Position numbers and translations under genes: made by a program | DNA from: Escherichia phage vB_EcoM_YN3 | Strand: one strand, 5' to 3' | DNA length: 64,000 bases | Sequence record: PV763136.1 | Shown here: positions 51,853 to 59,895 of the stretch, piece by piece | Position numbering within the stretch: the stretch's first letter is position 1 | Layout: each line of letters starts with the position of its first letter | Notes under the pieces: model-generated | What the model saw: the letters and a program-made list of their open reading frames with translations, nothing else | Told to the model about the DNA's origin: nothing | The model's database searches: none

Positions 51853-52086
51853 ATGAAAGTTAAATTTCTTACAGATTTAGGGTACCCTTCCTTGGTTGAC
51901 TGTGTTGGTAAAATTGTGGAAGCAAAACGGCTATCTGCAAACGAGAATGTTGTCATGGTTAAGGGAAAAGATTTATTAGCTGCAGGTGCAGAGTCTGGCA
52001 GGATCTCTCCTGACTATACGTATTACCTGTCTTTAAGTAATCTACCAGAACGAGGCGGCAAAGGCCTTGAAGTTGTGGAGGAGTGA
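51853..52086 (+). CDS. small acidic protein, paralogue family A
   Basis: MKVKFL N-terminus, VKGKDLLAAGA core, C-terminal LEVVEE; AGGAGG RBS. Confidence 0.5.
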   Translation: MKVKFLTDLGYPSLVDCVGKIVEAKRLSANENVVMVKGKDLLAAGAESGRISPDYTYYLSLSNLPERGGKGLEVVEE

Positions 52087-52091
52087 CAGGT

Positions 52092-52616
52092 ATGCTTCTG
52101 ATTAACTGGGAAGACCTCTATGGGGACAAAGACCCTGTTGCGTTTGTTGATCGTAGATGGAGATATACTGAAGAACAACTGGCTGCAAAAAATTTAACTG
52201 CAAAACGCAGAAAGATCATCCAGTGCAAGTATAAATACGCACAGTTTGCTGCAAAAGTGTCTCCACAAATCGAGAGCTTTGTGCTTAAATTGTATGACGA
52301 GTACCTCAAATTCAAACTGGATTTTGTACAGGTATACCGTGCACAGATACGCCCAGATACCAGCATTTGTAGATGGAAGGTTGTTTGTGACGGTAAAGAT
52401 TTGCCACTCAGCTTGACAATTGAGCAGCGTTGGGGGTATCATGAGTGCGGTCTGTATGAGACTTGGGATGTCATTGTAGATCCTGCTAAATACCTGAACA
52501 CAGAGGAGCTGGAATATATCAATAAGGTTATTCTCGATATGTTTTTCAGATACACCCGTGAAAACTCTGAGAAAGAACGGGATAATTTTCTTGACACCAT
52601 CAGCAACCATCTGTAG
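52092..52616 (+). CDS. hypothetical protein
   Basis: 174 aa; ATG after GGAGG preferred over upstream GTG. Confidence 0.5.
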   Translation: MLLINWEDLYGDKDPVAFVDRRWRYTEEQLAAKNLTAKRRKIIQCKYKYAQFAAKVSPQIESFVLKLYDEYLKFKLDFVQVYRAQIRPDTSICRWKVVCDGKDLPLSLTIEQRWGYHECGLYETWDVIVDPAKYLNTEELEYINKVILDMFFRYTRENSEKERDNFLDTISNHL

Positions 52617-52646
52617 TATACAATTTAACCTACAAAGGGAGGGCTA

Positions 52647-52883
52647 ATGAGTATAAATGTTGTGCTAATAGGTTACCTGGTAATAGCAGTTATAACAGCG
52701 GTATTCTTGACAGGTATATGCATCGTGTCTAGACGAAGGGTGAAGTTTGATGATTTTATCACCATCATCACTGCTGCACCTTTTTGGCCTATTGTTATCT
52801 TCATCGTAATAATGTGCCTAGTTGATTACTACAAGAATATCCGTAAGGAGAAAAAGGAGAGTAGGGATGGTGACCGCACCTAA
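52647..52883 (+). CDS. small membrane protein (two TM helices)
   Basis: 78 aa with two hydrophobic helices and RBS. Confidence 0.5.
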   Translation: MSINVVLIGYLVIAVITAVFLTGICIVSRRRVKFDDFITIITAAPFWPIVIFIVIMCLVDYYKNIRKEKKESRDGDRT

Positions 52884-53019
52884 AACTGTTTATACTGTTC
52901 TTAAAGAGATTGCGTTCTACGCAGATCTTAGCCAGGCACCTTTATGGGAAAAGAGCATGTATTTAAAATGGTGCGTTAATTTAGGGAGACCTTCCAGTGT
53001 TTCAAGCCATGTTTATTGA
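52867..53019 (+). CDS. hypothetical small protein
   Basis: 50 aa from Met 16 of the track ORF; AGGAGAG RBS. Confidence 0.3.
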   Translation: MVTAPKTVYTVLKEIAFYADLSQAPLWEKSMYLKWCVNLGRPSSVSSHVY

Positions 53020-53102
53020 GATGCTATCTGGGATATTGTTACTGGTAGCCATCTTAGGTGGTGCAGTTCTGATGTATAACTATCTTGAAAAAGGAGACAG
53101 CA

Positions 53103-53288
53103 ATGGTAAAAAATAAATCTTTAGAGCAGGCTGAAAACCTTCTCCACGAGCTAGTAAAGGAGTGGAAAGTTGAATACTCAGATTTTAATGCACGAGAGGG
53201 TGAAGATTATTGGCCTACGGAGCGCTCAGAGGGTGAATGGTATCAAGATTTTATAGAGTGGTTATATCAGACGTGCGATGAGGGGTGA
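53103..53288 (+). CDS. hypothetical acidic protein
   Basis: 61 aa; AAGGAG RBS before internal ATG. Confidence 0.45.
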   Translation: MVKNKSLEQAENLLHELVKEWKVEYSDFNAREGEDYWPTERSEGEWYQDFIEWLYQTCDEG

Positions 53289-53746
53289 CGATGTTTGTTA
53301 AATATGTAAAAACGTGCCTCAACAATCTTGGTAGAGAGCATTGGTACACCTTGCTTGAAAAAGGAGAAATTTTAACAAAATCTGGAAAGATAACTTTGAT
53401 ACCCTTGGACGATAAAGACCCGTCACTCCTTGTCATAGATGATTACGTTACAGGTGTGTCGTACGAGGTCTCTGTGGAGAGGTTAATACGCAGATCTGGA
53501 GGTCCTTATGACCGAAGAGAGTATGTTTTCGATTCTGTTACAGAGAAGGAAGATCCGTCTCTAATGTTCAGGATGGTAATCAGGGATATGAAATCATCTA
53601 TAAATAGGATCGTAAAGGACATTAAGGAGCCTTTTAGGGTAAAAGTTAAGAAGTTTTTTGATTCTAAGATTAACATACTTGCCGTTGTGCTAGGCGTAAT
53701 TCAACTTCTGTTAATTTTGCACTATCTTGAACTGTTGTTTAAGTAG
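53285..53746 (+). CDS. membrane-anchored protein (C-terminal TM)
   Basis: 153 aa, C-terminal hydrophobic helix ILAVVLGVIQLLLILHYL. Confidence 0.5.
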   Translation: MTMFVKYVKTCLNNLGREHWYTLLEKGEILTKSGKITLIPLDDKDPSLLVIDDYVTGVSYEVSVERLIRRSGGPYDRREYVFDSVTEKEDPSLMFRMVIRDMKSSINRIVKDIKEPFRVKVKKFFDSKINILAVVLGVIQLLLILHYLELLFK

Positions 53747-58196: not shown

Positions 58197-58591
58197 TGGT
58201 AAGCCTATACCGTGTTGAGTATAGCTCAGATACTGTGTACAACGTAAGAAGCAAAGATCGCAGCGACAGAGTGCAAGAAATGTATGTTCTTGCCGACAGT
58301 CCGTTATCTGCAGCGTTCAAGGCAGGGGCTCTTGCATCTCGTTGGAAATTTGAAGGCGGATCTTTCTATGAAGAAACCCTTGAAGATTCTGTTGTTATTT
58401 CTTCTGTAGAGGTTTCAGATGACTACGAAGGGAAAAAGTTCGTAATGCGGCACCCACACAGCAACATTGCGTACTACTGGGATGTTCTGAACAACGAGTG
58501 GACCCCAGATCTTCAGAAGGCTACTGTGCTAACACCGTTTTTGGCAGATAAGTTCCCACCAGAAGGTAATTTATCCGCACTGTTTCAGTAA
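58196..58591 (+). CDS. paralogue family B protein
   Basis: 131 aa, paralogue of 55997-56395; GAGGAGG RBS. Confidence 0.5.
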   Translation: MVSLYRVEYSSDTVYNVRSKDRSDRVQEMYVLADSPLSAAFKAGALASRWKFEGGSFYEETLEDSVVISSVEVSDDYEGKKFVMRHPHSNIAYYWDVLNNEWTPDLQKATVLTPFLADKFPPEGNLSALFQ

Positions 58592-58609
58592 TTTTCTTGC
58601 ACACAGGTG

Positions 58610-58638
58610 TTGACAACACCAACCCTGTGTGAAATAAT
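58610..58638 (+). promoter_or_regulatory. sigma70-type promoter flanked by inverted repeat
   Basis: TTGACA - 17 nt - AATAAT; ACACAGG (58601-58607) and CCTGTGT (58624-58630) bracket the -35. Confidence 0.6.
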
Positions 58639-58670
58639 ACCTTCATCTTAACAAGACAGGAGACCGATTG

Positions 58671-58928
58671 ATGAAGATTAAATTGAAAAACCTTGAAACG
58701 GCAGAGATTCAGGACGGTGTTGATTTCCGTTCTAAAGATGGTGACATCTTAGAGGTAAATATTCCAACCTACGAGCTGATCAAAGGTTTTGGCAACGTCC
58801 CAGAGGAAGGTATCGCAGACGTTCTTCTAATGTTAATCGTTAGTGGGACAGTGTTCTTGGGTGAAGGTGAGAACGCTATTGCAATCCCAAGCCATTTTTA
58901 TGAAGTAGTTGACGAAGAGGTGCTGTAA
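58671..58928 (+). CDS. small acidic protein, family A-like
   Basis: MKIKLKNL N-terminus, C-terminal FYEVVDEE. Confidence 0.5.
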   Translation: MKIKLKNLETAEIQDGVDFRSKDGDILEVNIPTYELIKGFGNVPEEGIADVLLMLIVSGTVFLGEGENAIAIPSHFYEVVDEEVL

Positions 58929-59279
58929 ATGAAAGTAGAAATTACTGGTTTTGATGTTAGTGTGGTTCCGGAAGATATTTTAGCTAACTTACCGGAAGGT
59001 TTTGGTAACGGTGTTGTGGTGGATGCTGTTCCTCCTACCAAAGACATTCTGCTGCAGTATGGTGTAGCAGAGGAAGATGTCGATAAAGTTCTTACAATGA
59101 TGGCAATCGATCGTGTTGTCGTTGTTAAAGGTCTCGATAATTTTGAGAGTGATCCTCTGATTATTCGCGGAGATGACTACAAAATCATCGATAATGAAGG
59201 CCAAGAGTTCTATGAGCCTTGTGCAGAAGATATTCTTAACTTATTACTGGAAGCAGGCACCGAAGAGGAGGACGAATAA
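58929..59279 (+). CDS. small acidic protein, family A-like
   Basis: MKVEITGF..., VVVVKGLDNF core, highly acidic C-terminus. Confidence 0.5.
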   Translation: MKVEITGFDVSVVPEDILANLPEGFGNGVVVDAVPPTKDILLQYGVAEEDVDKVLTMMAIDRVVVVKGLDNFESDPLIIRGDDYKIIDNEGQEFYEPCAEDILNLLLEAGTEEEDE

Positions 59280-59608
59280 TGAAGATTGACCCGTTACTGA
59301 AGGCTCGTGCAGAAAAAGCGTACACCATTAAGTTGACCAACTTGGTTCCTACTTGTCATCCGGATGTAGGTTGGCCAGAAGGTTTGGTGGAGGGAACTGT
59401 AACAGCTGCATACCTTCCTAACATCAAATACCTCATGGAAATCTTGGAGCTGGATGAGGAAACGGCAGAAGAGTTCCAGTTGGACATGAAACAAAGTGGG
59501 ACTCTGGTTATTCACGGGTGGTACAATACTAAAGATGCAGAAGATCCTCTGGTAACTTCTAATCTGGCATATGAAATCTTAGGACCTTTGAACCTGGAGG
59601 AAGACTAA
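59279..59608 (+). CDS. small acidic protein
   Basis: 109 aa, GAGGAGG RBS, C-terminal AYEILGP. Confidence 0.5.
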   Translation: MKIDPLLKARAEKAYTIKLTNLVPTCHPDVGWPEGLVEGTVTAAYLPNIKYLMEILELDEETAEEFQLDMKQSGTLVIHGWYNTKDAEDPLVTSNLAYEILGPLNLEED

Positions 59609-59895
59609 TGAAAGATCTGGTTAAGATTAAGATTAAAGATACCAATGGAGAACTCAGCCATTTTGGAATTAATGATGGTGACGAGCTGATCGCACACCTG
59701 CCTACCAAGGAGGTTGTAAGCAAAGCAGTTGCCGGAGAAGAAGCTGCAATGCAGGCTGCAGGTGTGGATGAAAACTATGTAGCTATGTGCATGTGCCGAG
59801 ATCAGGTTGTTCTGTATAAAGCGTATCGACCAAACGGAGCCACGGAGTGGCTTGTATTCCGACCCGAAGGATATGAAATCTTAGAGGCACTATGA
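59608..59895 (+). CDS. small acidic protein
   Basis: 95 aa, C-terminal GYEILEAL. Confidence 0.5.
   Translation: MKDLVKIKIKDTNGELSHFGINDGDELIAHLPTKEVVSKAVAGEEAAMQAAGVDENYVAMCMCRDQVVLYKAYRPNGATEWLVFRPEGYEILEAL

Follow-up and report, generated by a model that had tools for sequence, protein, structure and literature searches.

In a stretch of 64,000 nucleotides (nt) from Escherichia phage vB_EcoM_YN3 (PV763136.1; this whole stretch is called the window below), twelve small genes lying between positions 51,853 and 59,895 form tandem arrays of paralogues. These genes, labelled here A1 to A10, B1 and B2, encode three protein families that we name A-I, A-II and B. In a phage 97–99% identical, the counterparts of three adjacent members, A5, A6 and B2, are required in one clinical strain. 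The arrays most probably encode host-specific infection factors, likely small protein-binding inhibitors of a host system, with A5, A6 and B2 acting together, and the probability of this reading is put at about 0.6.

The array is a portion of the dispensable accessory arm of a Vequintavirus and carries five A-I genes, five A-II genes and two B genes (about 131 amino acids, aa, each). These genes form translationally coupled cassettes (A2-A3-B1, A5-A6-B2 and A7-A8-A9-A10), some of them behind host-type promoters. According to this reading, the small and mostly acidic products would attach to proteins of the host and inactivate them, the most plausible targets being parts of its anti-phage immunity, and separate paralogues would serve separate hosts. 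The A5-A6-B2 cassette would probably constitute one functional unit, B1 contributing partly.

Three families of small proteins

The region 51.4–60 kb of the window displays 96–97% nucleotide identity with rV5-like myoviruses (genus Vequintavirus), the matching records being those of FFH2, V5, PDX and about 115 more. Its counterpart in the rV5 reference corresponds to gp121-gp149, all annotated as "hypothetical protein" except the RaiA/HPF homologue. All genes of the region are on the + strand, in agreement with the GC skew. The twelve open reading frames (ORFs) that an earlier note, made from the letters alone, had picked out are indeed present on this strand and match annotated rV5 genes, being orthologues of gp122 and gp135-gp149.

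The earlier note had placed the ten A genes in a single family. Leave-one-group-out hidden Markov models (HMMs), trained on the remaining paralogue groups and their orthologues and run against every six-frame ORF of 40 aa or more in the window (716 in all), divide them in two. All five A-I members (A1, A2, A3, A5 and A6) were the top non-training match (E 5e-24 to 1.2e-6) and all five A-II members (A4, A7, A8, A9 and A10) were recovered (E 2e-8 to 4.7e-4), the next-best ORF of the window having an E of at least 0.37 overall and of at least 0.52 for the A-II profiles. All-versus-all BLASTP connected A1 with A2 (1e-8), A2 with A3 (1e-14) and A3 with both A5 and A6 (about 1e-3) in a first group, and A7 with A8 and A8 with A10 (about 3e-3) in a second one, with zero links joining the A1/A2/A3/A5/A6 group to the A7/A8/A10 group. 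The A-I HMM reached the A-II members with an E of at least 0.4 only (0.4–3.2 for A4, 8.7 for A8). On the leave-one-out HMMs and the hhalign matrix, the former family A is thus two sequence families, which brings the array to three families in total. The all-versus-all alignment and HMM building proposed in the earlier note also reveal a similarity far above chance inside each family, so that the tandem paralogues themselves are real.

The two A families meet in a single comparison, an hhalign alignment of A-I with A-II (P = 1.5e-3, probability 16%) that is confined to the first 29 columns and reads MK(V/I)K ... G-x-V-x-x-A. Variants of this test (group-wise, restricted to insert-bearing members, or in global mode) gave P values of 4e-3 to 0.15, the reversed decoy having a P of at least 0.04. 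Shared matches in the BFVD structure database link the two families at hint level only, and altogether these data hint at a common origin of A-I and A-II.

Three signatures had been proposed for the whole of the former family A, and two of them describe a part of it each. The central G(S/A)DL(I/L)AAGA motif is present in A1, A2 and A3, degenerate in A5 and A6 and absent elsewhere, which makes it an A-I feature, while the Y(E/K)(I/V)(I/V/L) tail is found in A4 and A7-A10 and not in A-I, which makes it an A-II feature. The MK(V/I)x-hydrophobic start does occur on the members but is not diagnostic, as it is also found on the non-members 51415 and 62370. These last two ORFs (51415-51813 and 62370-62585, both +), which flank the arrays, start with MKIEI(T/F), but neither profile recognises them (best E 0.52); they could be remote relatives, unless such a start is simply common.

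The presence of this start on non-members, together with an A-I/A-II likeness limited to about 29 N-terminal columns, could suggest that the similarity reflects convergence or composition of short acidic ORFs starting with MK rather than common descent. This explanation is hardly credible. Indeed, within-family leave-one-out E values range from 5e-24 to 5e-4 against at least 0.37 for the rest of the window, the A-I and A-II alignments are colinear along their full length within each family, and the PHROGs database grouped A1-A3 and B1-B2 independently. Convergence within families is refuted by these three lines of evidence, and the idea concerns the A-I/A-II link only.

In PHROGs, where the same proteins have been clustered automatically, phrog_5009 contains A1-A3 (A5 matching weakly, 1e-4) and phrog_7379 contains B1 and B2, while phrog_11868, phrog_13920, phrog_13661, phrog_12359, phrog_12155, phrog_12457 and phrog_12794 correspond to one protein each across A4-A10. 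All these groups are of "unknown function", and the ten A genes are scattered over eight of them, without the grouping of A5 and A6 with A1-A3 or of A4 with A7-A10 found here. Searches of Pfam, NCBIfam and PDB sequences with all members and with the family profiles returned nothing significant, an LRAT match of A10 being at chance level (E 0.073).

Among the A-I genes, A1 (51853-52086, 77 aa; rV5 gp122; phrog_5009 4e-36; leave-one-out E 2.8e-19) is a solitary copy. A2 (55516-55740, 74 aa; phrog_5009; E 5e-24) opens the cassette A2-A3-B1 and is followed by A3 (55730-55984, 84 aa; phrog_5009 5.5e-31; E 3.6e-20), which carries an insert between strands 2 and 3 of the predicted fold. The divergent A5 (57596-57859, 87 aa; E 5.2e-9; phrog_5009 1.2e-4) opens the cassette A5-A6-B2, and A6 (57864-58196, 110 aa; E 1.2e-6; hhalign to A3, P 2.2e-7), the most divergent A-I member, has two inserts. 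The A-II genes include A4 (57235-57504, 89 aa), which was the best of the 716 ORFs at E 4.7e-4 and aligns with A7 over 77 columns in hhalign (P 2e-3). The four others form the run A7-A10, which is opened by A7 (58671-58928, 85 aa; E 1.7e-6) and continues with A8 (58929-59279, 116 aa; E 2.1e-8; hhalign to A7, P 1e-4 over 60 columns), which has an acidic C-terminal extension, A9 (59279-59608, 109 aa; E 9.4e-6), which has an N-terminal extension, and A10 (59608-59895, 95 aa; E 4e-5). The preferred starts are 55516 for A2, 57864 for A6 and 58671 for A7. In the rV5 reference, A10 is annotated as two short overlapping ORFs, gp148 and gp149 (L001 11216-11486); it is a single intact 95-aa gene in the window and in phages Bas54 and Bas57, and the split is probably a frameshift or a sequencing error in the reference record.

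Family B, which had been proposed on the basis of its two members, is confirmed. B1 (55997-56395, 132 aa from a GTG; phrog_7379 1.9e-73) and B2 (58196-58591, 131 aa; phrog_7379 2.1e-66) share 28% identity over 112 aa (BLASTP E 1e-10), match phrog_7379 end to end and, when a divergent orthologue is added to the alignment, retain 22 invariant columns. Some records annotate B1 as 123 aa from an ATG at 56024; the GTG start is favoured because its N-terminal residues align with B2. B2 is at least 99% identical in 105 of the 118 Vequintavirus records.

The tight A-A-B runs described earlier do exist, B1 and B2 each being the last gene of one of them. In A2-A3-B1, A2 and A3 overlap by 11 nt and a 12 nt gap precedes B1; in A5-A6-B2, 4 nt lie between A5 and A6, and the stop of A6 shares 1 nt with the start of B2. 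The genes of the run A7-A8-A9-A10 abut or share one base.

Requirement of array genes in a clinical strain

The functional evidence comes from published data on orthologues. A saturated transposon library of Bas54 (Escherichia phage MaxBurger, MZ501093) has been described in the HIDEN-SEQ preprint (bioRxiv 10.1101/2025.11.20.689424), whose supplement gives phenotypes on K-12 and on one clinical strain, the uropathogenic isolate CFE311. The correspondence between Bas54 genes and those of the window was confirmed by BLASTP, and the values below are log2 fold changes (log2FC) between K-12 and CFE311.

On K-12, the orthologues of A1-A3, A7-A10, B1 and B2 are non-essential and those of A4, A5 and A6 are "intermediate" (saturation 0.69–0.73). 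In CFE311, insertions are strongly depleted in A5 (bas54_0152, 98.9% identity; log2FC −7.16), A6 (bas54_0151, 97.3%; −6.17) and B2 (bas54_0150, 99.2%; −6.77), and less so, about four-fold, in B1 (bas54_0157, 99.2%; −2.14), with q = 0 in all four cases. Mean insertion counts go from 142 to 0 for A5, from 71 to 0 for A6, from 108 to 0 for B2 and from 256 to 57 for B1 (10.1101/2025.11.20.689424). No significant change in CFE311 is recorded for A1 (bas54_0166, 97.4%; +0.72), A2 (bas54_0159, 97.3%; +0.98), A3 (bas54_0158, 90.5%; −0.30), A4 (bas54_0153, 95.5%; −2.78), A7 (bas54_0149, 89.4%; +0.40), A8 (bas54_0148, 98.3%; +0.06), A9 (bas54_0147, 99.1%; −0.04) and A10 (bas54_0146, 98.9%; +0.32). The idea that the array consists of accessory genes for interaction with the host agrees with this pattern, in which the members are non-essential or, for A4-A6, intermediate on K-12 and some of them are required in CFE311.

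The text of the preprint is silent on the array genes, its follow-up being limited to bas54_0063 and bas54_0140, both needed against a predicted defence system of CFE311, DS-28 (10.1101/2025.11.20.689424). The orthologue of bas54_0140 (61377-61676, +, 99% identical) belongs to the same accessory arm as the array, 1.5 kb further downstream, and bas54_0140 shows the same CFE311-conditional requirement as A5, A6 and B2; bas54_0063 encodes a MoxR ATPase and belongs to the same phage genus. However, both proteins are unrelated to A-I, A-II and B, and their role was established by knockouts against a cloned system, whereas A5, A6, B2 and B1 appear in the supplementary tables only.

The main alternative to host-specific infection factors built from all three families is that family B alone provides the effector, the A-I and A-II genes playing no independent part in the phenotype and the disappearance of A5 and A6 insertions being a polar or coupling effect on B2. 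The arrangement of the genes lends itself to such an effect, with A5 and A6 4 nt apart and A6 overlapping B2 by 1 nt. In the first cassette, it is B1 that shows a phenotype while A2 and A3 do not, and B2 is almost invariant across the genus. However, A2 and A3 insertions are not polar on B1, since they give no copy of the B1 phenotype, and A5 and A6 are under purifying selection in a divergent relative. Furthermore, the HIDEN-SEQ transposon carries no terminator, its authors argue against widespread polarity and insertions 5' of essential genes are tolerated (10.1101/2025.11.20.689424). As A2 and A3 insertions do not mimic the loss of B1 and the transposon lacks a terminator, the data argue that A5 and A6 have an importance of their own in CFE311, and the reduction of the system to family B appears doubtful.

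Several points nevertheless weigh against the reading of the arrays as host-specific inhibitors. The preprint contains no follow-up or clean knockouts of array genes (10.1101/2025.11.20.689424), and the clinical data are those of CFE311 alone, since the sheet titled for a second isolate, CFE303, duplicates the CFE311 table. As the A6 stop overlaps the B2 start, translational coupling might account indirectly for a part of the A5 and A6 phenotypes. For seven of the twelve genes, neither K-12 nor CFE311 reveals any phenotype, and the requirement in CFE311 could arise from any host difference, not necessarily from immunity. Lastly, structure prediction is confined to A2 of A-I and A7 of A-II. As regards the duplicated table, the sheet Data S6 of Extended Data Table 8 (10.1101/2025.11.20.689424) is titled K-12 versus CFE303, yet it carries a CFE311 command line and its numbers are those of S7.

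Predicted folds, charge and distribution

The AlphaFold2 model of A2, built from a 22-sequence alignment, has a mean predicted local distance difference test score (pLDDT) of 93.3. It comprises strands at residues 2-5, 21-27, 30-37, 56-61 and 65-69 and a short helix at 38-43 that corresponds to the DLIAAGA motif. A-I is thus confidently predicted to adopt an SH3-like small beta-barrel of five strands and, in a fold search, the predicted barrel superposes on SH3, KOW or PsaE domain folds. Among known SH3-like barrels, PsaE, the Spt5 KOW domain, eukaryotic SH3 domains, OapB and the C-terminal domain of retroviral integrases share 4–25% identity with A-I and no sequence-level relation, and the G-x-D-L-I-x-x-G-A helix that follows strand 3 is peculiar to A-I; the match is one of generic fold, from which no function can be transferred. 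A Foldseek search of BFVD with the A2 model retrieved many small proteins without functional name (template modelling score, TM, 0.7–0.86), the named sources of which are phages CM1, Merlin, CS01, RB49, pSf-1, Sf20 and VpV262, several of them enterobacterial.

The A7 model, built from a 34-sequence A-II alignment, has a pLDDT of 89.6 and the order strand-strand-helix-helix-strand-strand-strand. In BFVD it has good matches with two proteins only, one of 86 aa labelled Vibrio phage Vc1 and one of 95 aa from phage ECP32 (TM 0.65/0.59); from its length, the latter may be an A10-type protein. In A-II, the helical hairpin separates strand 2 from strand 3, at the very site of the A3, A5 and A6 inserts. 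Because of this coincidence of position, it is plausible but unproven, on the predicted models, that A-II is an A-I barrel with an inserted helical hairpin.

Contacts with RNA polymerase or with ribosome components are frequent among SH3/KOW-like barrels, and this is one of the arguments for another explanation, in which the array proteins would be general host-takeover or regulatory factors that modulate host translation, proteolysis or transcription instead of immunity, their importance varying with host physiology. The genomic setting is consistent with this idea, as the array surrounds a homologue of a ribosome hibernation factor (Pfam Ribosomal_S30AE, 4e-13) and lies downstream of ClpP-like, PhoH-like and methyltransferase genes. 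Moreover, A4-A6 are already "intermediate" on K-12. On the other hand, K-12 infection does not require most of the members at all, the strongest effect is all-or-none and specific to one strain, and a neighbouring gene of the same block, bas54_0140, is reported as counter-defence. A general takeover function is therefore considered unlikely.

The earlier note had also described all the proteins as acidic and had drawn a comparison with DNA mimics. The first statement needs correction: ten of the twelve proteins have an isoelectric point (pI) of 4.05–4.8, with a net charge that reaches −22 in A8, but A1, with a net charge of −1, is close to neutrality and B1 is basic (pI 8.6). Small acidic phage proteins can act as DNA mimics, and the array proteins resemble Ocr (T7 gp0.3) and ArdA in being small, mostly acidic and encoded by a phage or plasmid among accessory genes. 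One explanation would be that they are mimics of this kind and inhibit restriction, BREX or comparable DNA-targeting systems. However, Ocr and ArdA have elongated folds imitating B-form DNA, whereas the fold comparison suggested in that note, now carried out, gave a compact barrel for A-I and no Ocr- or ArdA-like elongated shape. No member matches either family in the Pfam, NCBIfam or PDB sequence searches. In addition, Vequintavirinae are "exceptionally susceptible" to restriction-modification and seem to have no effective protection against it (BASEL study, PMC8594841). The DNA-mimic explanation is thus very improbable.

The A-I family extends beyond Vequintavirus. When 1.84 billion representative proteins were searched exhaustively with the A-I profile, only 20 were returned at E ≤ 1e-3, each of 63–107 aa and with the same N-terminus, core and tail. 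With a distant member as query, tblastn detected homologues in the Citrobacter Moonvirus phages Merlin, Moon and CF1, in a Krischvirus, in a Proteus podophage and in the 54-kb coliphage MagusPhagus, where the gene lies inside a long run of small hypothetical genes. A single A-I copy is present at each locus examined in Merlin, in MagusPhagus and on two short metagenome contigs. Among the phages examined, five copies are found in the Vequintavirus lineage only, and A-II and B occur only in Vequintavirus-like sequences. Word-indexed protein searches retrieved only close orthologues, from Vequintavirus-like contigs. Within the genus, A7 exists as two allelic classes.

The blocks of small non-essential genes of T4-like phages, such as the one between gene 32 and frd, offer a parallel, the single A-I homologue of Merlin being located between gp32 and frd. 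They are comparable with the array in gene size, tight packing and dispensability, but, among the phages examined, the combination of five A-I genes with A-II and B is seen in the Vequintavirus lineage only. The rV5 genome paper makes no mention of paralogues, and a paper on defence islands of enterohaemorrhagic E. coli contains nothing about the array genes.

Age, recombination and genomic context

A divergent relative known from public assemblies (L002-L004) carries the whole array in the same order, with 34–84% amino acid identity and two differences: the B1 slot is occupied by an unrelated 106-aa ORF (L002 9004-9324), and an extra 98-aa gene (Pfam PF27050, Phage_P22_Y8K6) lies between B2 and A7 (L002 11389-11685). 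Wherever it could be estimated, the ratio of nonsynonymous to synonymous substitution rates (dN/dS) of each member, relative to rV5 and to this relative, was 0–0.34. As gene order is kept and dN/dS is low, the twelve ORFs are real conserved coding genes under purifying selection. The paralogues predate the split from the lineage of the divergent relative. Furthermore, no DNA-level repeat was found between any two paralogues, which indicates that the duplications are old.

Duplication of a whole A-A-B unit had been suggested by the earlier note. Two tight A-A-B cassettes are indeed present, but the A-I hhalign matrix reveals no positional pairing: A2 and A3 are mutually closest (P 1.7e-15), A5 and A6 are each nearest to A3 (about 2e-7), and A5 and A6 are the least alike (9e-4). 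Together with the lack of any DNA-level repeat, this leaves the duplication of the unit neither supported nor excluded by the comparison of the genes. Gene conversion between neighbours could have erased its signal, and such neighbour exchange does occur, because natural A2::A3 hybrids exist. In three metagenome-derived Logan contigs of up to 133 kb (L007 6001-6213 and L008 6001-6213, to be compared with 55516-55984 in the window), a 70-aa hybrid replaces both genes. The hybrid matches A2 with 97% identity in its 5' part and A3 with 94% in its 3' part; the event amounts to a 256-bp deletion, with a crossover point in the stretch encoding G-x-DLIAAGA. The hybrid was not found in the 25 best-matching isolate genomes.

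A mosaic present in two independent ENA assemblies (L009 1-428 and L010 1-428) consists of an unrelated upstream ORF and an A1-like N-terminal half, followed, after a junction at the conserved A-I motif, by 98.6% rV5-like sequence (the A2 C-terminal half, A3, and B1 onwards). A-I genes may therefore serve as recombination junctions.

A third paralogue pair was noticed in the same region. The ORF 52083-52616 (+, 177 aa, "putative glycosidase" in BASEL records) is similar, through its C-terminal 70 residues, to the ORF 56413-56703 (+, 96 aa; 31% identity, BLASTP E 2.8e-5). The first lies just downstream of A1 and the second just downstream of B1, a placement that hints at an older and larger duplicated unit. 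Bas54 (L016, MZ501093) displays, in the same accessory arm, a natural deletion of about 2 kb that removes the six small genes of window 53285-55232, between the orthologues of 53085 and 55229.

Two sigma-70-type promoters were predicted on the + strand, each with 11 of 12 consensus matches. The first (TTGACA-17-TATTAT, 56710-56738) lies upstream of the HPF homologue and A4 and is the positional counterpart of rV5 P144, located 5' of the RaiA gene. The second (TTGACA-17-AATAAT, 58610-58638), with an extended −10 in which the TG is present, lies upstream of A7-A10 and is the positional counterpart of rV5 P150. The HPF/RaiA homologue itself (56786-57097, +) is located in the middle of the array and, in Bas54, is non-essential on K-12 and unchanged in CFE311.

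Downstream of the array, no convincing ORFs are seen along window 62586-64000, a long segment in which the sign of the GC skew is reversed. This segment contains one short direct repeat (20 nt, spacing 35 nt) and one weak inverted repeat, and an Rfam scan of 50–64 kb gave no match. It is the counterpart of an intergenic region of about 2 kb in Bas54 from which no transposon insertions were recovered (10.1101/2025.11.20.689424), and it may therefore be an essential cis element. Elsewhere in the window, six tRNA genes are clustered at 20132-21071 (−), one of which (20377-20475, 99 nt) is given a four-base anticodon and no amino-acid assignment by ARAGORN. Lastly, eighteen GenBank records of "Campylobacter phage" (host C. 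jejuni) match the full 8.6 kb of window 51400-60000 with about 95% identity, and this host label looks doubtful.

A more ambitious version of the preferred reading, that of host-specific infection factors, is possible rather than probable. A5-A6-B2 would then be a three-protein counter-defence module directed against an immune system of CFE311, a pairing separate from the one reported between DS-28 and two other Bas54 genes. All ten A genes would form one superfamily of SH3-like binders, A-II being A-I plus a hairpin, and would constitute a repertoire against variable host targets, reshuffled by recombination at the motif.

The rV5-like phages, which are candidates for therapy and biocontrol, rank among the E. 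coli phages isolated most often, and their accessory arm is mostly annotated as "hypothetical". Twelve such "hypothetical" genes now belong to three defined families, with a predicted fold for A-I and an expansion of copies that is lineage-restricted among the phages examined. One cassette, A5-A6-B2, is tied to data that were already available but had not been discussed, and in which it is essential only in a clinical strain. This raises the question of which factor of CFE311 is overcome by A5, A6 and B2, and of whether the silent paralogues fulfil this function elsewhere, in other hosts. Should the target indeed be immune, these proteins would represent new counter-defence families and a worked example of paralogue repertoires in the arms race between phages and their hosts.

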